Assembly: GCA_029856105.1 (NCBI GenBank)
Contig: JAHQWH010000004.1
Location: forward strand, 1 to 11,511
Direction of reading: 5' to 3'
DNA from: Promethearchaeia archaeon
GTDB taxonomy: Archaea; Asgardarchaeota; Lokiarchaeia; Sigyniarchaeales; SOKP01
DNA: 11,511 nucleotides
Both the position numbers and the translations under genes were made by a program. Positions 1-11,511 of this stretch are shown in pieces; the stretch's first letter is position 1; each line of letters opens with the position of its first letter. Under the pieces are notes generated by a model. The model had not been told where the DNA came from. It did no database searches and saw only the letters and a program-made list of their open reading frames with translations.

Positions 1-56
1 TTTTTTTTTAATTTTTTAATTAAAATATTATAACAATCAATAAATGGATTATATAA

Positions 57-1307
57 ATGTTTAAATTAAAATTAAGGAACAAATCAAATTACAGCGTTCT
101 TATATTACTTTTAATCTTTATTAATTTTAGTTTATTAATATCTAATGTCTTATCTCATAGAACTGAAACTATATTCGGTTTTTCTACTGAAGATCAAATC
201 TACCCAAACGAATCTGTGAAATACATTTTTTCTAACAATATAATCTTTGAAATCTCGACAGATTCTTTTATTGACTTAGAAATCCAATATGAAAATAGAA
301 TTGAAAATCGTCAAATTTTCTTTCTTATTAATAATAGTAATCCGATTTCGTTAAATATCACCTCTAAAGTAACAATGCAAAGTTTTGGGATGGATAGACT
401 TCCTCAAGGACCAAAAAAAAGAGATTCTCAGTTTCAGTACAGGTATGATTGCATCTTTCAAATAAATACTAACACAACGATAGAAAATATGACTATTAGA
501 AGCCTTAAAAGATCTCTATACGGCTTTAATCCTAGTAATAGTTATTCTTTAGCCTTATACGAACCTTCGCAAGATTCGTGGGAAGTTATCAGTACAAATG
601 AACAATTAAATGAGTCCAGTTCTGAATATTCTTTAGAGGGGGCTCTTATTAACTTGCAAGCAGACACTGAATATTACATTACGTTTTTCGAAATTATCGA
701 GGTTTTTGATAATTGGATTTGGGTAATCATTTTGATAGTTGGTGCTATTGGGTTGGCCTCGCTTGCTATTTTAATTTCAAAAAAAGATTATTTCCAATAC
801 TTAAAAACTAGAACGATTCCAATTGAGAAAGGCGCTCATCGGCTAAGCTTAGAAGACGTTTTAGAGAACGAAAATAGGAATAAAATAATCGATTTAATTC
901 TAAATGAACCGGGCATTCATTTCAACGAGTTGTTAAGAAAAACCGAAATAGCTGCGGGTAATCTCGTGTGGCACCTCGATATATTAGAGACCTACAAGGT
1001 TATTGGGAAAAAGCGTATTGGGAATTTTATAGCGTATTTTCCGTATTACCAGAAGAATCCCATCTCAAATATTGATCTTCAATTAAGTAAGAGCAAAGTA
1101 ACTTTAGAAATCTTACAAATGATCGAAAAAGAACCGGGTCTATGGAATAGCATTATAACAAAACGCTTTAAGGTCGATCATAAAACTATTCAATATCACG
1201 TTAAAAAGCTAATAGATCTTAATTTAGTTCATTTCGAAAGCGAAGGAAGAAAAAAAAAGATATTTCCCAATCTAGATTCAGATTATTTCAATAACAAGAA
1301 AGAATAA
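57..1307 (+). CDS. Membrane-anchored tandem winged-helix transcriptional regulator (COG3398/ArsR-like) with N-terminal signal peptide and extracytoplasmic domain
   Basis: Basic N-terminus plus hydrophobic stretch (VLILLLIFINFSLLISNVLS), a ~185-aa beta-rich soluble region, one TM helix (WIWVIILIVGAIGLASLAILIS, from nt 714) followed by KK, then two wHTH units (ENENRNKIIDLILNEPGIHFNELLRKTEIAAGNLVWHLDILE and EILQMIEKEPGLWNSIITKRFKVDHKTIQYHVKKLIDLNLV). Confidence 0.85.
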   Translation: MFKLKLRNKSNYSVLILLLIFINFSLLISNVLSHRTETIFGFSTEDQIYPNESVKYIFSNNIIFEISTDSFIDLEIQYENRIENRQIFFLINNSNPISLNITSKVTMQSFGMDRLPQGPKKRDSQFQYRYDCIFQINTNTTIENMTIRSLKRSLYGFNPSNSYSLALYEPSQDSWEVISTNEQLNESSSEYSLEGALINLQADTEYYITFFEIIEVFDNWIWVIILIVGAIGLASLAILISKKDYFQYLKTRTIPIEKGAHRLSLEDVLENENRNKIIDLILNEPGIHFNELLRKTEIAAGNLVWHLDILETYKVIGKKRIGNFIAYFPYYQKNPISNIDLQLSKSKVTLEILQMIEKEPGLWNSIITKRFKVDHKTIQYHVKKLIDLNLVHFESEGRKKKIFPNLDSDYFNNKKE

Positions 1308-1412: not shown

Positions 1413-1931
1413 ATGTTGAAATACTGTATGATTAACCCAGAGGAATTTTTAGAATTTTTAAAAAGTAGAAGGAGCATAAGAAGCTTTCTCGATAAAATGA
1501 TTGCTGATAAGGACCTTGAAATGATTTTAGAGGCAGGAAGATGGACTCCAAGTGCTTCTAATAAGCAGCCCTGGGAGTTTATTATCATCAAAAATAAAGA
1601 ATTTTTAAAGGAAATTTCAGAATCAGCTATTTATAGTAAGTTTATGAAAAGAGCTCCTGTTGCTATAGCTATAGTTGGAAAAATTAAAGAAAATCCGAAT
1701 TGGTACATTCAAGACACAACATTAGTTTCAATGAATATGATGTTGATGGCTTGGTCTTTAGGAATAGGGACTTGTTGGATTGGTTCAATGGATAGGGAAA
1801 AAGCTAAAGAATTACTTAGTCTAGGGAAAGATGATTTTCTTTTAACAATCTTACCTTTTGGATATATTAAAGGAAACGTTCCGAAACCGACTCTAAGAAA
1901 ACCTATAGAACAAATAAAAAAAGAAATTTAA
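1413..1931 (+). CDS. Nitroreductase family protein (FMN-dependent oxidoreductase)
   Basis: Family motifs RRSIRSF, AGRWTPSASNKQPWEF and MMLMAWSLGIGTCWIG. The true start could be the in-frame ATG at 1428. Confidence 0.95.
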   Translation: MLKYCMINPEEFLEFLKSRRSIRSFLDKMIADKDLEMILEAGRWTPSASNKQPWEFIIIKNKEFLKEISESAIYSKFMKRAPVAIAIVGKIKENPNWYIQDTTLVSMNMMLMAWSLGIGTCWIGSMDREKAKELLSLGKDDFLLTILPFGYIKGNVPKPTLRKPIEQIKKEI

Positions 1932-1951: not shown

Positions 1952-3115
1952 TTATGAAATGATAAGGTCGTTAAGTTCTTCTGGTGCTTTCGTTAATTTA
2001 ACATAACCATCATCGGTTATTAAGACAGAGTCAGAATGACGGAAACCTCCAAGTCCCGGAATGTAAATACCGGGCTCAACGCTTATTAACATATTTGGTT
2101 CGAGAAGTCTATCATATCCCTCAGCTAAATACGGAGCCTCGTGTCCAGTAATTCCAAGCCCATGTCCAGTGCGGTGAATTATGTAATCACCATATCCTTT
2201 TTCAGTTATAAACTTTCTTACTTTACTATCTATTTCACCCATATTTGTTCCTGGTTTCAAAAGGTTATACGCAAGCTCTCTGGCCTGGAACATTGCTTCG
2301 AAAGGTTTCTTAGCCTTTTCTGGAACATGTTCTAAAAAGAAGGTTCTTTCTATTTCAACCCCATAGCCATCTACCTGAGCGTATACTATGGAAACATGTG
2401 GACCTCCTTCTTCCATTTCGGCAAAAAGTTTTGGAATTATATGCGGGTCGTGAGAAAAAGAGGGTGGCCAAACTGCTCCCACCGTTTTACAGACGATGAA
2501 ATTTGCGCTGGGTATATCTGTGACAATCTTCGAAGTCATAAATCCTGTGACTTTCTGATATAAAGCAAATTCCGGCACTCCAGGACGGCAAATTTTAAGC
2601 AATTCTTTATGTCCTCTATTAATAATTTTACAAGCATGGACAGACCTCCCGATTTCGTAATCAGTTTTTACAATTCGCACTTCGTCTATAATGTCTGTAA
2701 TTACTTTACTTCCAGGCGTTTTTTCAGCTATCCCAGATGGCATTGCAGCCTCGATCCCCACTTTTTTCTCTTTTTCAATTAGTTTTTGGTATATATCGTA
2801 CCAATTTTCTCCTTGGGGTGCTGGGAATTCGTAATAACTATGAAATTCAAGTTCGCCTATAGATCTGGACTCAACATGGCTTTTTTCTAAGAGGGGAACC
2901 ACCATTTTAGGTATTCCTTCTCTTTCTATAATGAGGAGAAACGGACGTTCGTGTACGTTATTAGCAAAATTAGTTAAATAATAAATATTAATTGGATCAA
3001 ATGACACATAGTAATCCAAATTCTCTTGTAACATCAAGTTTCTTACTTTTCCTAAACGATTGGAAAGTTCCTCTAGATTTGGTGGTGCTGTAATACCTTT
3101 TGGTTTATCATTCAT
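1952..3115 (-). CDS. M24 family (Xaa-Pro peptidase/creatinase-like) hydrolase
   Basis: Creatinase_N-like start (RLGKVRNLM...NIYYLTNF) and pita-bread domain motifs HRTGHGLG..GHEAPYL, SVEPGIYIPGLGGFRHSD. Confidence 0.93.
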   Translation of the reverse strand: MNDKPKGITAPPNLEELSNRLGKVRNLMLQENLDYYVSFDPINIYYLTNFANNVHERPFLLIIEREGIPKMVVPLLEKSHVESRSIGELEFHSYYEFPAPQGENWYDIYQKLIEKEKKVGIEAAMPSGIAEKTPGSKVITDIIDEVRIVKTDYEIGRSVHACKIINRGHKELLKICRPGVPEFALYQKVTGFMTSKIVTDIPSANFIVCKTVGAVWPPSFSHDPHIIPKLFAEMEEGGPHVSIVYAQVDGYGVEIERTFFLEHVPEKAKKPFEAMFQARELAYNLLKPGTNMGEIDSKVRKFITEKGYGDYIIHRTGHGLGITGHEAPYLAEGYDRLLEPNMLISVEPGIYIPGLGGFRHSDSVLITDDGYVKLTKAPEELNDLIIS

Positions 3116-4094: not shown

Positions 4095-6605
4095 TTATAT
4101 AATTAGGACGCTAGGAAAGAAGTTTTGTCCGGTTATCGCTAAAACTACATTTAATATTAAGCCTGGAATAATTGTATTCGTTTTGGCAAAAAGGTAAGAT
4201 AATATTAAGCCAATAACAAATAAATATACCCATAGAATTATTAATGGAAAGAATGGATTTGGTAAATATATGAAAATAAAAACCATAGGAATTAAATTGA
4301 ATATGGAAGAAATTAATCCACTATAAATAATTGCTACTCTCTCCTTATTGGATTTTAATAGTTTGGTCAATATAAGACCACGAAGAGCTATTTCCTGCCA
4401 AAAATTTCTAGATATTATAAGTAAAATGTTGAAAAAATAATAGGGGATTAATATTGGAAATGAAGGAAGACTGTAATTCAATGTATATAATATTATATTA
4501 ATTGAATAGATACCAATAAACGCAATTAATACTCTTATCATATACTGCGTAAACTTTCTTAACCAACTAACTCCAATATCGTTAAAATATTGTGTTAAAG
4601 TTTTTTTACCAAAGGGAAACCCAAAAACTTTTGGAATTATCAGAAAGATGAAGGATGTATAGACTAAATTATAGCCTCCAAAAGACAATAGAAATAATAA
4701 AGCAGCAGTTGAATTGTAATATGGCTCCAATAATGGAGGATTTAAACCGATTATATAATTTGCAAGAATTCCAAATATATAATAAAAAACTAGTATTATT
4801 ATAAAGGATTCCCATGTATGTTGTGTTAACCAAGTGCCACTTTCTTTCACTTGATGCTTTGAGACGAATAATACTCGTTTTGCCTCTTTTTTAATCTTGA
4901 TTTTGGGAAACATGGAGTCAAATATCAAAATAATAAAAGTAAATCCAAAGATTACTACGAAAACAAAAAATAGTCCCATTTCTAAAAAACCAATAATATA
5001 GTATATGTAAAGGGCCAACGTGAAAATCCAGATAAAGATGAATATATTAGAAAGGTAAATGATTGCCCATTTTGTAGATTTCTTTTCCTGTAAAACTTCT
5101 TCCAGAACATAATGATTTTTCATTTTACCAAAATAATGAACTCTTAATAGAAAGAAGGAAAGTAGAAAAATAGATGCAAATGGTAGTGTCCATAAAGAAA
5201 TTAAGAATACAGATAAAAATCTTCCATTGTTAAGTAAGAATAATGGAGGAGTTAACACCGAAATCATCTGAATTATTATCATAAGTAGTAATTTTGCTCT
5301 TGCTCGTTCTCGAGGGATTATTGGTAAGGATGCTAGAATTGTCTCGCCAGATTCTTCTATATTTAACAAACTAAAGACTATCATTCCGGCCACAATTACC
5401 TGAAAGCCCAGATTTATCAACCAATCATAAATTCCCGTAGATTGTAGGAATGTTATTTCTCCTAACCCTGCTAAGTTGTAAGATAGTGTGAAAATATAAG
5501 ATAAGATTATTGGCATTATGAAAGACATTAATGTTTTAATATCTCGTGTGCTTGTAATGAAATCTTTTCTGATGTACGCTTGAACAGGGGATCTTACTTT
5601 AAGTGTTAATTTTTTATTACCATTAGAGACTTGTTGCTTTTTAATAATTGAATATTTTGAAAATGAAACTTTTTCTAAACTTTTAAGAGTCCTACCACAT
5701 ACTAACCATGTTAAGAGAATAAATATCGCCAATCCAATTATGCTGTTTAACCATAATTTAAATGATACTTGTTCTGGAGAAATAAATAATGCAATAATGT
5801 AACTAGGATTGAATGGAAAGGGGATAAGAGATAGTATTGAATTAACGATCGAGGGACTATCTATACTCACAAACCAGTTAAAAATTGAATCTATTGAACT
5901 GATGGAGAATTGAATTGAATAAACACTAACTATTATGATAATTATATAACTAAACATATGAAATAATCGAACTAAATTTGTCTTCTGTGAACCTAAATCA
6001 TTAATATCTAATATCCGATTGAGTCTCACACAAAAAAAAATTAATAAACTAAATGCAAATATAGTGTTTAATACACTCATTCCAAAACAGATAAAAAACA
6101 ATGTAAGGTTTAGAGTACCAATTAGTATGATAGTAGGAAAAGCGATTAAAGATATAATAATGGGAAGATCAAGGCTGCGAAAAATCGTAAAAAAGACCAT
6201 TCTTCTTAAAGATTCTCTTGGCAGTGGTAGTGTCTCATACCATTTGAATATTTTACCTGATATAATCATTGTAGTTTTGAACATCCCTAAGAGAAAAAAG
6301 TTAAAAAATTGGAGCGAGAAATAAATTACAAAAAGTAGACTTCCCGTAAAAACAATTAAATCTGTTGAAAGTGTTCCACTAGTTAGTTGATGATTTATTT
6401 GAATGTATGTTAGAAGTGGAATAATTGGTAAGATGATAAACATTACTGAACTGGTTATTTTTGTCATCAACTCTTTCTTTCTTAAGGTTTCCTTGTTCTT
6501 CTTGTAATTTTCAAAAAATCTTGATTGATAAGAGCCAACATACTGTAATTGTTCTTCGATTAAAATTTCCATAGAGTTAATTTTTGCTAATGATAGTATT
6601 CTCAT
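4095..6605 (-). CDS. Polytopic membrane protein: internally duplicated ABC-2-type permease-like region fused to a C-terminal degenerate CPBP (CAAX protease/Abi) domain
   Basis: Many TM segments. Repeated coupling-helix-like motifs WYETLPLPRESL and EESGETILASLPIIPRERARAK, plus YIRKDFITSTRD at the start of the second half. The C-terminal region has CPBP-like spacing: FWQEIALRG...SGLISSIFN...KTNTIIPGLILN. Confidence 0.7.
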   Translation of the reverse strand: MRILSLAKINSMEILIEEQLQYVGSYQSRFFENYKKNKETLRKKELMTKITSSVMFIILPIIPLLTYIQINHQLTSGTLSTDLIVFTGSLLFVIYFSLQFFNFFLLGMFKTTMIISGKIFKWYETLPLPRESLRRMVFFTIFRSLDLPIIISLIAFPTIILIGTLNLTLFFICFGMSVLNTIFAFSLLIFFCVRLNRILDINDLGSQKTNLVRLFHMFSYIIIIIVSVYSIQFSISSIDSIFNWFVSIDSPSIVNSILSLIPFPFNPSYIIALFISPEQVSFKLWLNSIIGLAIFILLTWLVCGRTLKSLEKVSFSKYSIIKKQQVSNGNKKLTLKVRSPVQAYIRKDFITSTRDIKTLMSFIMPIILSYIFTLSYNLAGLGEITFLQSTGIYDWLINLGFQVIVAGMIVFSLLNIEESGETILASLPIIPRERARAKLLLMIIIQMISVLTPPLFLLNNGRFLSVFLISLWTLPFASIFLLSFFLLRVHYFGKMKNHYVLEEVLQEKKSTKWAIIYLSNIFIFIWIFTLALYIYYIIGFLEMGLFFVFVVIFGFTFIILIFDSMFPKIKIKKEAKRVLFVSKHQVKESGTWLTQHTWESFIIILVFYYIFGILANYIIGLNPPLLEPYYNSTAALLFLLSFGGYNLVYTSFIFLIIPKVFGFPFGKKTLTQYFNDIGVSWLRKFTQYMIRVLIAFIGIYSINIILYTLNYSLPSFPILIPYYFFNILLIISRNFWQEIALRGLILTKLLKSNKERVAIIYSGLISSIFNLIPMVFIFIYLPNPFFPLIILWVYLFVIGLILSYLFAKTNTIIPGLILNVVLAITGQNFFPSVLII

Positions 6606-6609
6606 GCTA

Positions 6610-7797
6610 TTACCTTTTTCCTCGTATATTTTTAACTTTTTTATTATTTAATACTTTTTTTGAGATATATATCAACGTTAATAAACCAAATAGTCCAAAA
6701 AATGATATAATTAAAGAAATTATGTCACCTTCTTGTTGGTTATTTGAGTTAATAAAATTGAATAATGAAGAACTATCAATATTATAATGGAGTCTGTTCT
6801 GATCCAATAAATTATCTTGAAAGCGATTATCATTTGAACCATCTAAAAGAGAAATACCATAGAAATTATTTAGAATAAGATTACTTGATACATAATTAGC
6901 TAAACTTCTCTTAAATAATATAGCGCTCGACTTACTATTAGTAATAATATTTTCATGAAGAATATTATCCCGACTTTCATGGAGATAAATTCCATTCTGT
7001 ACATTTTTACTAATATTGTTCTGCTCAATAATATTATTACTTGTATATAATAAAACAACGCCATTTTCATTATTTTCAAATAAATTAAAAAATATATAGT
7101 TGGACATTCCATTAGAAAATGAAATCCCCGCTTTATCACTGTTAAGTAAGAAATTATCAGAAATAAAATTCTCCTTACTATTAGTAACGAATATACTATG
7201 AGAATTACTACGGAATTCATTTCTCAGAATATCATTCCCAAAACCATTTTTAATATCTATAGCAACATTGTTATCATTAAATATATTATTTCCTATATCA
7301 CTATGTGCAGTATTAACAAATTTAATGCCAGTTTGGTTATCAGTGATATTACATTTATCAACCAATACATTATTACAGTCTAAAGCATGAATACCTTGAG
7401 AATTATTATATATATTGCTTAAAACCACTCTACTGTACACTGTATTTTTCAATAAAACTCCGGTATCGGAATTAAATATACTACAATTAATTATCATGAA
7501 GTGTGAAGCTGTATTTTCAACTATAACACAGACTTTCGAGGAAGATAATATTAAATTTACAATGCGATAGGGATCTGCATATGTACCTGAACCTGAACAC
7601 CAATCATAATTTACAATAGTTTCTGACCAGTTATCATCAATGTGTATAGTATAATCAATATTCCAAAACCCTGAAGAATTATAATCTAGTTTGAACTTAT
7701 CATTCTCTTCTTCAAGCAGAATAGGAGTATTTCTGTCTAATAATATTCCAATATTCCCGAAGAAAAAGAGGAAAAAAAAAAAAATAATCTTTATCAT
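6610..7797 (-). CDS. Membrane-anchored right-handed parallel beta-helix (NosD/CASH/pectin-lyase-like) surface protein
   Basis: Hydrophobic N-terminus, cap motif IHIDDNW...DWCSGSGTYADPYRI, many ~22-aa Asn-rich repeats (e.g. GIYLHESRDNILHENIITN), and a C-terminal TM helix with a Lys/Arg-rich tail. Its stop lies 4 nt before the ATG of the 836-aa gene. Confidence 0.88.
   Translation of the reverse strand: MIKIIFFFFLFFFGNIGILLDRNTPILLEEENDKFKLDYNSSGFWNIDYTIHIDDNWSETIVNYDWCSGSGTYADPYRIVNLILSSSKVCVIVENTASHFMIINCSIFNSDTGVLLKNTVYSRVVLSNIYNNSQGIHALDCNNVLVDKCNITDNQTGIKFVNTAHSDIGNNIFNDNNVAIDIKNGFGNDILRNEFRSNSHSIFVTNSKENFISDNFLLNSDKAGISFSNGMSNYIFFNLFENNENGVVLLYTSNNIIEQNNISKNVQNGIYLHESRDNILHENIITNSKSSAILFKRSLANYVSSNLILNNFYGISLLDGSNDNRFQDNLLDQNRLHYNIDSSSLFNFINSNNQQEGDIISLIISFFGLFGLLTLIYISKKVLNNKKVKNIRGKR
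7772..7784 (-). repeat. T13 homopolymer in codons 5-9 of the beta-helix gene
   Basis: A13 on the + strand, encoding IFFFF. It is the longest homopolymer I found in the window. Confidence 0.9.
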
Positions 7798-8109: not shown

Positions 8110-9642
8110 TTGAAAACATTTGAAGATTATTTAGCCCGATTATATAAAATGAAGCCCAATATTTACATTGGTGAAGAATTAGTAGGTCGGGATGACCCTC
8201 GATTACAGGGTGGTCAAAATATCATAAAAGTTACCTATGACGCCGCTCACAGCGAGGAGTTTGAAGATTTGTGTGTAGTTACCTCTCATTTAACTGGAAA
8301 GAAGATTAACCGGTTTTGCCACATCCATCAGAGCGAAGATGATCTTTTAAAAAAGCAGTTGATGACGCGATTATTATGTCATCGAGTAGGGGGGTGCATT
8401 CAAAGGTGTATGGGTATTGATGCTTTAAACGCTCTTTCTGTAATTACATACGAGTTAGACCAAGCGCTTGGAACCGATCACTATGAAAGGTTTAAGAAGT
8501 ATTTAGAATATTTTCAAGAGAACGATTTAGTAGCAAGCTGTGCACAAACTGATCCTAAAGGAGATCGTTTGAAGAGACCTCACGAACAAGAAGACCCAGA
8601 TCAATATTTAAGGGTTATTGAAACGAGAGAAGATGGAATCGTTGTTAGAGGTGCTAAAATTAGCATTACAAACACACCATACGCAGATGAGATGATAATT
8701 GTTCCAGTTAGGTACATGGGCCCGGAAGATAAAGATTACGCAGTAGCATTTGCATTACCTACAGATTGGGATGGAGTTAAATTATTAACGAGACCTGCTA
8801 GCTTTAGAAAAAGTGAACGCATGGAATATCCTGCTGGGAATTTTGGAGACGCTGAGACTTTTATTATCTTTGATGATGTTTTTGTTCCCAACGATAGGGT
8901 TTTTTTAAATGGAAATGGAGATCCTAGGCAAACTGCATATGCTGGCTTTCTAGCACTTATGTTTGCTCACTATCACCGACATAGTTATACTGGTTGTAAG
9001 CCTGCCATATCAGAAGTTATAGCGAGTGCTGCAGCGTTAGTTGCAGAATATAACGGCATTGAAAAAACATCTCATGTTCAAGACAAACTTTCTCACCTTA
9101 TAGGTACTGCGGAACTCGTTTTTGCTGCCGGTGAATCTAGTGCAAAACACTCTGAAAAGGCTCCTTCGGGAACACAAGTTCCAGACGAGATTTTAACCAA
9201 TGCTGGAAGGAGACTTGCAGGAGAAATGATTTACGACGAATATAAAGTATTAGCAGACCTTTCTGGCGGTCTTATTGCAACACTACCTTACGAAGGATCG
9301 TTTTTCTCTGAAGATGTTGGCACACTTGCTATGAAATATATGAAGAGAAATCCAAGAGTTAAACCAGAAAACGTTTTACGTTGTTTTAGAGGCATTGAAG
9401 CTCTCGCGGTTTCAGAAATAGCCGGCCTTTTACAAGTAGCGGGCTTACATGGTGGAGGATCGCCGTCAATGGAAACTATAACTATGATGATGCGCTACGA
9501 TCTTGAGAAACTGAAAGATATTTCTAAGTACCTTTTTGGAATTAAGTCCAAATTGAAAAGATACGAAAGACCAACCGTTACTCCTAGAAAACAACTTGAG
9601 AAATACCGAAAAGCTATGAAAGGAAAAAAATTAGAGAAATAA
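8110..9642 (+). CDS. abfD: 4-hydroxybutyryl-CoA dehydratase-like [4Fe-4S]/FAD protein (AbfD/HpaB superfamily)
   Basis: CX3C (CIQRC, 8395-8409) and HX6C (HRHSYTGC, 8974-8997) cluster motifs, plus AQTDPKGDR, GIVVRGAK, FDDVFVP and HGGGSP. TTG start with GAGG at 8098-8101; the N-terminus KTFEDYLARL matches the family. The symbol denotes a homologue, and the exact activity is uncertain. Confidence 0.88.
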   Translation: MKTFEDYLARLYKMKPNIYIGEELVGRDDPRLQGGQNIIKVTYDAAHSEEFEDLCVVTSHLTGKKINRFCHIHQSEDDLLKKQLMTRLLCHRVGGCIQRCMGIDALNALSVITYELDQALGTDHYERFKKYLEYFQENDLVASCAQTDPKGDRLKRPHEQEDPDQYLRVIETREDGIVVRGAKISITNTPYADEMIIVPVRYMGPEDKDYAVAFALPTDWDGVKLLTRPASFRKSERMEYPAGNFGDAETFIIFDDVFVPNDRVFLNGNGDPRQTAYAGFLALMFAHYHRHSYTGCKPAISEVIASAAALVAEYNGIEKTSHVQDKLSHLIGTAELVFAAGESSAKHSEKAPSGTQVPDEILTNAGRRLAGEMIYDEYKVLADLSGGLIATLPYEGSFFSEDVGTLAMKYMKRNPRVKPENVLRCFRGIEALAVSEIAGLLQVAGLHGGGSPSMETITMMMRYDLEKLKDISKYLFGIKSKLKRYERPTVTPRKQLEKYRKAMKGKKLEK

Positions 9643-9660
9643 ATACTTGCTTTTAATTCA

Positions 9661-9669
9661 TTTTTTTTT
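9661..9669 (+). terminator. Putative oligo-T terminator downstream of the abfD-like gene
   Basis: T9 tract 18 nt after the stop codon. Confidence 0.4.
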
Positions 9670-9725
9670 ATTAAATTATTTTTAAAAATTATTAAGTTAT
9701 TAAGATAGTAGTTTACGCAGATATT

Positions 9726-10178
9726 ATGAAGGATATTAATGAGAACGATAAGGAAGTAATAGACAAACTACTTGGAATTGAGGATTTTAAACAAATTGAA
9801 GTTAGAGTCGACGATACTGATTTGATGCAGGTTGTCCATTCTAACAAATATCTAAATTATTTTGACGATGGCTTCATAAGTTTTGTACAGAAGCTTAATA
9901 AAGATTGTGGCGCGCTACACAAAGAAGGGATCGTTTTTCCAGTTAGAAAGGTTGAAATTGAATATTTAAGCTCGGCTACCTTCGGAGATAAAATTCTTAT
10001 TCACACTCGAGTTGTAAAAGTAGGAAACACCTCTATAACTCTTGCGATGGATTGCTATAAAAACAACAAATCAAAAGAAACGCTCCTCGTAAAAGGAATT
10101 ATTGTGAGGTTAATTATGGACATGAATAAAAATGAATTAATCAAAATAACTGATTTTTTTAGCGATACCAAAATTTAA
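9726..10178 (+). CDS. Acyl-CoA thioesterase, hotdog fold (YbgC/FadM/4HBT family)
   Basis: Motif VRVDDTDLMQVVHSNKYLNYFD, followed by EIEYLSSATFGD and KVGNTS. Confidence 0.92.
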   Translation: MKDINENDKEVIDKLLGIEDFKQIEVRVDDTDLMQVVHSNKYLNYFDDGFISFVQKLNKDCGALHKEGIVFPVRKVEIEYLSSATFGDKILIHTRVVKVGNTSITLAMDCYKNNKSKETLLVKGIIVRLIMDMNKNELIKITDFFSDTKI

Positions 10179-10244
10179 TAGTAAACTGAAACTCTAAATG
10201 GATGATTGTAATAATCAAATTTTTAAAAAAAATCGTAATAAAGC

Positions 10245-11123
10245 ATGTTTGACTTAATAAAAACATTCCAAGCTCACTCAAATTATGTATTAAGTCTCGC
10301 AATCACTCCAGATGGTTCAATGTTAATATCCACGGGCATGGATAACTTAGTGAAATATTGGAAACTACCATCATTTGAACTAGTTAAAACTTTAGAAGAA
10401 CATTCTAGAAGTGTGAATTCGATATCTTTCGCATCAGGGGGTTTAACCTTTGCCACTGGTTCCACTGATAAAACGGCAAAATTATGGGATTTTAACTCTG
10501 GGAATGTCCTGCATACATTAAAAGGGCATAAAAAAACAGTCATAGCTGCTGAGATATCACCAGACTCTAAGTTTATTGCTACAGGCTCATATGATGGAAA
10601 AATTAAGTTATGGGATGTAGCTAACGGAAGTGAGCTTTTAACCATTAATGCTTTTGAAAGAAATGTAACTTCAGTCAGGTTTTCACCAGACGGAAAGATT
10701 TTGGCAGGAGGAGGTCTTGGAGATTCTTTTCATCTCTGGAAGATGCCATCAGGGGAATTACTGAAAAGCGTAACCGAGCATAAAATCGTCGTTTCTGGAG
10801 TCCGCTATACTCCTAATGGAGATTTATTTACATCGATCGGTTCTGAATCATTGAAAATATGGAATCCTAAAAGTTGGGAGTTGTTGAGAACTGTTCAATT
10901 TGATACGAAGTACCCTCGTCCTCATGTAATTTCACCCGACTCGAAGATTATTGTAATAGGTTTTGATTACAAAATACAAATTTGGAATATCAGTGATGGT
11001 GAACTATTAGAAACAATTGAAGTAAGACCTAAAGGTGTAGATTCCTTATGTTTCTCACCAGATGGTAAATCACTGTTAATGGGAGCTGCGGATAAAAAAA
11101 TTAGAGTCTGGAAATTAATGTAA
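10245..11123 (+). CDS. Stand-alone WD40-repeat protein (about 7 blades)
   Basis: Seven ~42-aa repeats such as LKGHKKTVIAAEISPDSKFIATGSYDGKIKLWD. Confidence 0.95.
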   Translation: MFDLIKTFQAHSNYVLSLAITPDGSMLISTGMDNLVKYWKLPSFELVKTLEEHSRSVNSISFASGGLTFATGSTDKTAKLWDFNSGNVLHTLKGHKKTVIAAEISPDSKFIATGSYDGKIKLWDVANGSELLTINAFERNVTSVRFSPDGKILAGGGLGDSFHLWKMPSGELLKSVTEHKIVVSGVRYTPNGDLFTSIGSESLKIWNPKSWELLRTVQFDTKYPRPHVISPDSKIIVIGFDYKIQIWNISDGELLETIEVRPKGVDSLCFSPDGKSLLMGAADKKIRVWKLM

Positions 11124-11127
11124 CTAT

Positions 11128-11511
11128 TTATTCTTTCTTAACAAATTTTTCAAGTCTTTTTTTAAGTTCTTCAGACTGCCCAGTTGTAATCATTGCTATT
11201 GATTCGCGTGCTAAAACGGATTCAATACTTAAATCTTGGTTTTCATTTATAAACTTCTTTGTATACTGAAGAGCAAGGTGGCCTTTTGAAACTATCATGT
11301 TAGCAGTTTTTTTTAGAATACGATTTAGGCCTTCTGGTTTACAAACTTGATTTACTAAGCCAATATTAAGAGCCTCTTCAGCAGAGATCTCATTTCCAAG
11401 AAGCATAATCTGTTTTGCTCGAGTTTCCCCGACAATTCTAGGCAATAACTTTGTAGACGCGTTTGAAAAGAAAAGTCCAACTCCTACTTCTGGCAACATG
11501 ATTCGTGTATC
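11128..11511 (-). CDS. Enoyl-CoA hydratase/isomerase (crotonase) family protein, 5' end outside the window
   Basis: MLPEVGVG...LLPRIVGETRAKQIMLLGNEISAEEALNIGLVN. The frame stays open to the window edge (DTRI-MLPE), so the ATG at 11499 is internal. Confidence 0.92.
   Translation of the reverse strand, partial: DTRIMLPEVGVGLFFSNASTKLLPRIVGETRAKQIMLLGNEISAEEALNIGLVNQVCKPEGLNRILKKTANMIVSKGHLALQYTKKFINENQDLSIESVLARESIAMITTGQSEELKKRLEKFVKKE

Follow-up and report, generated by a model that had tools for sequence, protein, structure and literature searches.

In animals, the GAIN fold serves as the mechanosensory switch of adhesion G-protein-coupled receptors (GPCRs), and in bacteria the regulator ToxR has a small partner that is encoded next to it. 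ToxR works with this small membrane-anchored protein, which is described as supporting ToxR (PMC7496328). Cleavage of GAIN domains, and likewise of microbial MAIN domains, has been shown experimentally to take place at the tripeptide H-x-S/T in the last β-turn; for B. subtilis YfkN it was mapped to HF/S, with the fragments remaining associated (Brogan and Rudner, bioRxiv 10.64898/2026.05.12.724683). The MAIN proteins described are large, averaging 158 kDa, contain domains for adhesion or enzyme domains, and were proposed to release cargo; the preprint makes no mention of transcription factors, of a link to signalling or of Asgard archaea (bioRxiv 10.64898/2026.05.12.724683). Here we describe a window of 11,511 nucleotides (the whole stretch of DNA that was analyzed; contig JAHQWH010000004.1 of assembly GCA_029856105.1) from the Asgard lineage Promethearchaeia. 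Near its start lies a gene, referred to below as the regulator gene, which on balance appears to encode a type I membrane-tethered one-component transcription regulator and to stand second in a conserved unit of two genes. Each part is of a kind already known, be it the membrane one-component regulator, the GAIN/MAIN-like domain or the ArsR-type winged helix-turn-helix (wHTH), but the combination is new, and a full-text literature search returned no description of a GAIN/MAIN-like protein paired with a transcription regulator.

A signal peptide, an extracytoplasmic domain (ectodomain), one transmembrane helix and a cytoplasmic tandem wHTH follow one another in the regulator, an order already given in the initial annotation and borne out by hydropathy, Pfam and AlphaFold2. 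Hydrophobic segments were located by hydropathy at residues 9-34 and ~219-241. In the Pfam scan HTH_HVO_0163_N (PF24266) matched residues 271-329 with 58.8 bits against a cut-off of 31, and residues 347-392 matched HTH_24 (PF13412; 35.7 bits, cut-off 21.9) and HTH_5 (PF01022; 24.7 bits, cut-off 22). Matches were confined to the wHTH region, and residues 35-218 had none in either Pfam or NCBIfam. AlphaFold2 modelling of the full regulator from a 37-sequence alignment gave an N-terminal helix, an all-β domain, a helix at 219-251 and two winged helices, with a predicted local distance difference test (pLDDT) score below 50 at residues 249-262 of the linker although this segment is nearly invariant in the alignment. 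The ectodomain folded alone from 51 sequences was again all-β (pLDDT 95.9, predicted TM score 0.90). Across orthologues the cytoplasmic half was almost invariant and the ectodomain moderately conserved. Since 522 homologues of ~415 aa were recovered with 62-92% identity across their full length, all of them from Asgard assemblies labelled Lokiarchaeota or Promethearchaeota, the regulator gene is far from a chance open reading frame (ORF); an in-frame TAA directly precedes its ATG. A sample of 200 genomes from across the phylum included 40 of the family of the window, and 36 of these 40 had a full-length orthologue (E <1e-100), so the fusion does recur in related genomes. The sister family carries diverged orthologues, and the other genomes of the sample matched the transmembrane and wHTH part only.

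With respect to topology, the available indicators support a sensor outside the cell and a wHTH inside it. Four K/R residues precede the first hydrophobic segment and five directly follow the transmembrane helix, and small residues occupy positions -3/-1 after the first segment (V-L-S / H-R-T; orthologue pattern V/I-x-S/A/G). The ectodomain has an isoelectric point (pI) of 4.4 and six N-x-S/T sequons, four of which are retained in at least 35 of 37 orthologues, and the C-terminal half has a pI of 9.3 and no sequons. It is because of these basic flanks, small residues, pI contrast and sequons, together with the AlphaFold2 model, that the predicted type I orientation, the reverse of that of ToxR and already proposed in the initial annotation, is upheld. 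The N-terminal segment may be a cleaved signal peptide or a second, uncleaved anchor; in two short paralogues (243 and 254 aa) from the genome of the window, the equivalent segment forms the first transmembrane helix of a hairpin anchor. The transmembrane helix begins 3-4 residues past the last ectodomain strand.

All nine orthologous loci that extend upstream have, in the same orientation and with its end 70-100 nt ahead of the regulator gene, a gene encoding 226-232 aa. Its product, termed the partner, comprises a signal peptide, an ectodomain, the motif H-F-S (replaced by E-F-S at one of the nine loci), a strand of the form S/T-W-T-[IV]-L-x-P-D, a transmembrane helix placed as in the regulator, and a KKRK tail. 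Coordinate comparison placed the partner directly upstream of the regulator in 39 genomes of two families. In complete single-contig genomes of sister families the pair was adjacent in three of four, one of which has two tandem partner copies, bringing the total to 42 genomes. Four genomes of the family gave no match to the partner; a full-length regulator was missing from three of these as well, and in the remaining one, G153, there was just a short fragment. Within one Asgard order, three sampled families have kept the pair, and it is also carried by complete genomes of sister families.

The partner was absent from the assembly of the window when this was searched by tblastn and at the level of genome sequence, and it was missed in the initial annotation because only 56 nt of the contig precede the regulator gene. 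A second contig of the same genome, C238, ends in the partner promoter and the first 16 codons of the gene (M-K-K-L-S-K-I-L-L-G-T-I-F-L-M-I), and has, upstream and divergent, the 751-aa gene that is also present in the loci of relatives. In the closest relative (92% identical), a spacer of ~80 nt comes after the partner stop codon, and bases 1-56 of the window match it almost exactly. As judged from these flanking sequences, the partner gene falls in the assembly gap between C238 and the window, and the loss of ~640 bases in this gap accounts for its absence.

The domain that the initial annotation had called unrecognised proved to be a relative of the domain next door. Comparison of the partner and regulator families by hhalign gave a probability of 98.3% (E 1.5e-14, 157 columns), on which basis the two ectodomains are paralogues, and an N-glycosylation sequon (N-G-T / N-T-T) stands at the same hhalign column in both. 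HFS was found in 119 of 120 partner homologues, one strand before the membrane anchor and followed by the strand S-T-W-T-[IV]-L. At the aligned position the regulator has N-L-Q, which in the model sits at the end of the penultimate strand and the start of the last β-turn, and H-x-S/T occurred there in none of 153 regulator orthologues. No histidine is invariant anywhere in the regulator ectodomain. Self-cleavage of the regulator was ruled out on these two grounds. We lean towards the view that the partner has an HFS-motif, GAIN/MAIN-like domain of which the regulator ectodomain is a paralogue without catalytic activity, and by analogy with YfkN the partner itself would be autoproteolysed at H-F/S. 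When the ectodomain by itself was searched exhaustively with HMMER, only 36 representatives were recovered from 1.84 billion proteins, and all complete ones share the architecture of the regulator.

Fold searches are suggestive, and only hint at a GAIN/ZU5 fold for the regulator ectodomain. The structural comparison proposed in the initial annotation yielded the confident all-β model, whereas Foldseek against the PDB gave no match at E ≤0.001. Structural alignments (VIA-align) reached Z ≤6.0, within the noise level of 7-8 stated in the guide to the tool, and an unrelated dextranase sandwich also scored 6.0. The longest of them (126-141 residues, scores within noise) were to the GAIN_B domains of BAI3 (4dlo), CD97 (8ikj) and CELSR1 (8vy2), and ZU5 and the CARD8 FIIND were also among those covering most of the ectodomain (Z ≤6.0, within noise). 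The profile of the partner retrieved only chance rows of picornavirus VP2 from PDB sequences (E ≥0.19) and nothing below E 0.008 from Pfam. In the protein atlas the ectodomain scored best (0.88) to clusters without names and the partner matched only its own Asgard clusters, likewise without names. A ZU5 cluster at 0.79 in the atlas was rejected as being at chance level, and a match to the giant Calx-beta protein P0150 (E 3e-8, 8 stretches, 16% identity) was read as a generic likeness among repeated β-sandwiches.

Compared with the MAIN domain of YfkN, the pair shares a secreted, envelope-anchored β-sandwich placed just before the anchor, and the partner keeps H-F-S, the tripeptide that is cut in YfkN. 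In contrast to described MAIN proteins, the partner would be a MAIN-like domain without cargo, and in the regulator a dead copy would be joined to a DNA-binding module; the structural scores of the regulator ectodomain (Z ≤6.0) limit the comparison. As in the GAIN domain of adhesion GPCRs, a juxtamembrane β-sandwich leads directly into the membrane, the H-x-S/T turn of the partner is followed by a hydrophobic strand (S-T-W-T-I-L) comparable to the tethered-agonist strand of those receptors, and the state of the ectodomain would be coupled to an intracellular output. Unlike those receptors, there is no GAIN_A subdomain and no bundle of seven transmembrane helices, the output would be a DNA-binding domain, and the cleavable and signalling copies are on separate polypeptides, with similarity scores that lie within noise. 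With ToxR-ToxS, TcpP-TcpH and CadC the regulator has in common that a single-pass protein joins an outside sensor to a cytoplasmic winged helix. It differs in that the sensor is N-terminal and the DNA-binding part C-terminal, in having a tandem ArsR/HVO_0163-type module rather than one OmpR-type domain (a Trans_reg_C match was absent from the Pfam scan of the regulator), in the mutual paralogy of sensor and partner, and in being archaeal rather than bacterial. By analogy the regulator would work like the ToxR class but is not a member of it, and the closest functional analogues would appear to be ToxR-ToxS and TcpP-TcpH for a regulator with a small partner, and adhesion GPCRs for a GAIN-type switch.

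DNA binding by the tandem wHTH, and the site that it would bind, are what we infer, indirectly, from the basic character and conserved wings of the module and from a conserved palindrome at the promoter of the pair. The second winged helix showed 31% identity to the ArsR structure 6j05, with a root-mean-square deviation (rmsd) of 1.9-2.3 Å over 70 columns (Foldseek), and because it scored below the cut-off of the NCBIfam ArsR/SmtB subfamily model (36.2 versus 55), it is regarded as ArsR-like and not as a curated metalloregulator. Conserved Lys/Arg residues were found in both wings and in the second recognition helix of the orthologue alignment. Typical members of PF24266 and of the ArsR-SmtB regulators are small soluble dimers, whereas here a single chain has two different winged helices behind a transmembrane helix and an ectodomain.

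Upstream of the partner gene an inverted repeat, CAAT-GGGAA-nn-ATTATTCC-TYAATCC-TTTTTATA, was present in nine loci and was a perfect GGAATAATTATTCC in two of them. It abuts a B recognition element (BRE)/TATA-like box ~65 nt before the partner ATG. A strict form of the pattern, GGG-N5/6-TTATTCCTYAATC beside TTTTTATA, occurred once per genome in 12 relatives (four other genera), always at the partner promoter, and the reversed pattern used as a control gave 1 match in total; no wider regulon was found in the relatives with the strict pattern. The genome of the window contains the strict pattern twice, at the end of C238 and on contig C28, in both places in the form CAATyGGG-N5-TTATTCCTCAATCC. 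A bacterial sigma-70 promoter and terminator scan, uninformative for an archaeal host, found no enrichment.

The C28 copy (C28:963-989, locus L027) is identical to the partner promoter core at 26 of 27 nt and precedes an ORF (1050-2711) for a 553-aa surface protein with a signal peptide, a NosD-like β-helix, a transmembrane segment and a basic tail. A weaker third copy (C54:2140-2166, locus L028; 24 bits) has a TATA-like box and is directed into the 3' end of an ORF that converges on it and encodes a transporter-like protein of 719 aa, by eye a P-type ATPase; because no ORF lies downstream of it, this copy may drive an antisense or small transcript. The 751-aa divergent neighbour of the partner (C238:9683-11938; locus L029:184-2439, minus strand; N-terminus M-S-L-K-E-F-T-K-E-I-F-T-R-Y-G-F) is conserved in synteny. 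It gave weak coiled-coil-type matches and no HTH match in Pfam, and to our reading it looks TrmB-like by no more than its first residues.

Our preferred interpretation, held with somewhat better than even confidence, is that the pair forms a two-protein envelope sensor, in which the dead ectodomain would read the state of the cleavable partner and the transmembrane helix would pass the signal to the tethered wHTH. Gene 1 would supply ~230 aa made up of a signal peptide, a GAIN_B/MAIN-like β-sandwich with the H-F/S motif, a transmembrane anchor and the KKRK tail; gene 2 would supply the duplicated β-sandwich, deprived of the catalytic His and Ser and joined through a transmembrane helix and linker to two winged helices. 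The paralogous ectodomains, the transmembrane helices, or both, would associate in the membrane. The partner could be intact, cleaved but held together, or stripped of its N-terminal fragment by force, ligand or protease, and, depending on its state, the regulator would differ in conformation, oligomeric state or stability. DNA binding by the tandem wHTH would be set in this way while it is still membrane-bound. The likeliest site is the inverted repeat beside the BRE/TATA at the promoter of the pair itself; in the genome of the window the same element is also present at the promoter of the anchored β-helix surface protein. A motif-intact protein without cargo next to a motif-dead fused paralogue would be the simplest conceivable route from autoproteolysis or shedding to gene regulation, MAIN domains having been reported only in 2026 and only as release devices for surface enzymes and adhesins. 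The parts of the pair are small and testable in E. coli.

A more specific version, which we consider doubtful, has the pair act as an archaeal device for sensing shedding or force, in which the N-terminal fragment of the partner would be held non-covalently and then pulled or digested off, whereupon the regulator would switch transcription. The exposed S-T-W-T-I-L-x-P-D-Y-T stalk, or the vacated interface, would then be read by the dead ectodomain of the regulator. If true, a GAIN-type autoproteolytic sensor would here be coupled to a transcription factor without intermediates, in the lineage of archaea that is nearest to eukaryotes, as a functional parallel to the logic of adhesion GPCRs and Notch.

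Several observations count against the two-protein sensor. We infer both the contact between partner and regulator and the direction of regulation, and neither protein was linked to GAIN or GPS by Pfam or by PDB sequence profiles. In one complete genome (G216) partner and regulator lie apart with the queries used. A run of T9-T11 is retained in every compared spacer between the two genes and may end the partner transcript, so that co-transcription is uncertain. With respect to the promoter element, a position weight matrix found no copy in the spacer or in the rest of the window (best score 12.5 bits, inside an ORF), and the palindrome could belong to the divergent 751-aa protein rather than to the regulator, both being candidate binders. 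Lastly, the top Foldseek matches of the tandem unit were chains of ScpB (E 4e-4, 161-172 columns), whose tandem winged helices bind protein and not DNA.

The spacer T-run would also suit a regulator that acts as a stand-alone sensor, its β-sandwich binding a glycan, peptide or envelope component by itself, with the partner as a co-regulated target or cargo. CadC-type membrane one-component regulators can sense with their own periplasmic domain (PMC5430869), and the transmembrane and tandem-wHTH module is also joined to unrelated ectodomains and short loops, beside which no search for MAIN-like partners was made. We nevertheless consider this explanation unlikely, given the near-obligate adjacency of the pair in 42 genomes and the joint absence of both proteins from three genomes of the family; an ectodomain that duplicates that of the partner is hard to explain under independent action, and it was found in no other protein context among the 1.84 billion representatives. 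Release of the tandem wHTH into the cytoplasm by a cut in or near the transmembrane helix or the linker, as in Notch, ATF6 or RsgI-like factors, was judged distinctly unlikely, although it would be compatible with a two-protein sensor. A linker of 28 residues that is nearly invariant and yet predicted to be flexible is what would be expected of a processing or docking site. The conserved segment H-R-L-S-L-E-E-V-L-E-N-E extends as far as the first winged helix and also occurs in paralogues lacking a MAIN-like domain, and for this reason the linker may simply be part of the DNA-binding fold. Intramembrane cleavage had been raised in the initial annotation because of small residues in the transmembrane helix; these G/A/S-rich positions fit the idea but are weak evidence. 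The window does encode an Rce1-like intramembrane protease domain, as part of a protein of 836 aa; this protein was ruled out as the processing enzyme since its gene is not kept beside the orthologues. No protease gene is syntenic with the orthologues, whose downstream genes vary, and none could be linked to the regulator. Archaea have no nuclear barrier that would make release necessary, and ToxR acts while tethering DNA to the membrane (PMC10629549).

That the tandem unit is not a transcription factor at all, and instead anchors a cytoplasmic partner at the membrane as a ScpB- or ESCRT-II-like scaffold, is very unlikely in our view. The ScpB matches noted above fall on its side, as does the common use of winged helices as protein-protein modules. 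The superposition on ScpB was poor (TMt 0.34-0.36, rmsd >11 Å), as were the TM scores of the other fold matches, to TFIIIC and Pol III subunits. Against the scaffold, the profiles matched the DNA-binding ArsR, MarR and HTH_24 families above cut-offs, the pI is 9.3, the basic wings and recognition-helix lysines are conserved, and there is the likeness to an ArsR repressor (31% identity, ~2 Å rmsd).

The features of the regulator gene and of the sequence preceding it are listed in Table 1. The acidic-aromatic tail follows the second wing, and N405 is invariant among orthologues.

Table 1. Positions of the regulator gene, its predicted protein segments and the upstream spacer within the window.
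Feature	Position	Strand	Basis or remark
Spacer, 3' part, between the partner gene (unassembled) and the regulator gene	1..56	+	T9 run, then AT-rich promoter-like sequence, TAA 54-56
Regulator gene, 416 aa, stop codon included	57..1307	+	ATG start, uninterrupted ORF
Residues 1-34: basic n-region (4 K/R), hydrophobic core, putative signal-peptidase site V-L-S / H	57..158	+	
Residues 35-218: predicted extracytoplasmic all-β domain, 184 aa, motif-dead paralogue of the partner domain	159..710	+	AlphaFold2, hhalign
N199-L200-Q201, aligned with partner H-F-S; His and Ser/Thr nucleophile both absent	651..659	+	hhalign register
Residues 219-241: single transmembrane helix directly after the last β-strand	711..779	+	Hydropathy, model helix 219-251, W220 invariant
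Residues 242-270: juxtamembrane cytoplasmic linker, S-K-K-D-Y-F-x-Y-L ... E-K-G-A-H-R-L	780..866	+	Invariant columns
Residues 271-333: first winged helix, HVO_0163_N type, basic wing K318 K319 R320	867..1055	+	PF24266, E 5.8e-16
Residues 347-405: second winged helix, ArsR/HTH_24 type; recognition helix K376, K384; wing R398 K399 K400 K401	1095..1271	+	
Residues 406-416: C-terminal tail L-D-S-D-Y-F-N	1272..1304	+	Orthologue consensus P-N-L-D-S-[DE]-Y-F

The initial annotation also anticipated paralogues that share the wHTH and differ outside it, and such proteins were found. The genome of the window encodes four further PF24266 proteins, namely two short hairpins, one protein with an extra cytoplasmic domain and one soluble protein. 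Relatives carry versions of 467-905 aa with a signal peptide, a transmembrane part and the tandem wHTH, in which ectodomains of 230-640 aa are unrelated and without a Pfam match; some have three transmembrane segments. One genus (g3; loci L013 and L014) has at least nine paralogues of 750-775 aa, each with a signal peptide, a ~460-aa ectodomain lacking Pfam matches, three transmembrane segments and the same tandem wHTH, and two of these adjoin on one contig. PF24266 was also present in the control genomes of Haloferax, Methanocaldococcus and Methanosarcina. Asgard genomes thus hold a modular family of type I receptors built as ectodomain, transmembrane part and tandem wHTH, which bears on how Asgard archaea sense surfaces and syntrophic partners.

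With respect to the other genes of the window, a 172-aa nitroreductase-family gene (1413-1931, plus strand) directly follows the regulator gene and occupies the same position in L002, L004, L005, L011 and L012; this is synteny without an obvious functional link to the regulator. An M24 (Xaa-Pro) peptidase gene (1952-3115, minus strand) converges on it. The 836-aa protein (4095-6605, minus strand) has as its sole Pfam match the C-terminal Rce1-like (CPBP) domain. Its gene is likely in an operon with that of a 395-aa surface protein (6610-7797, minus strand), which it follows after five bases. The latter protein comprises a signal peptide, a NosD-like β-helix, a C-terminal transmembrane segment and a basic tail, shares 24% identity with the C28 protein as a distant paralogue, and does not itself have the element. 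Finally, positions 8110-11499 encode an HpaB-family enzyme (4-hydroxyphenylacetate hydroxylase / 4-hydroxybutyryl-CoA dehydratase type), a 4HBT thioesterase and a 292-aa WD40 β-propeller, with a fragment of an enoyl-CoA hydratase on the strand opposite to the genes of the HpaB-family cluster.

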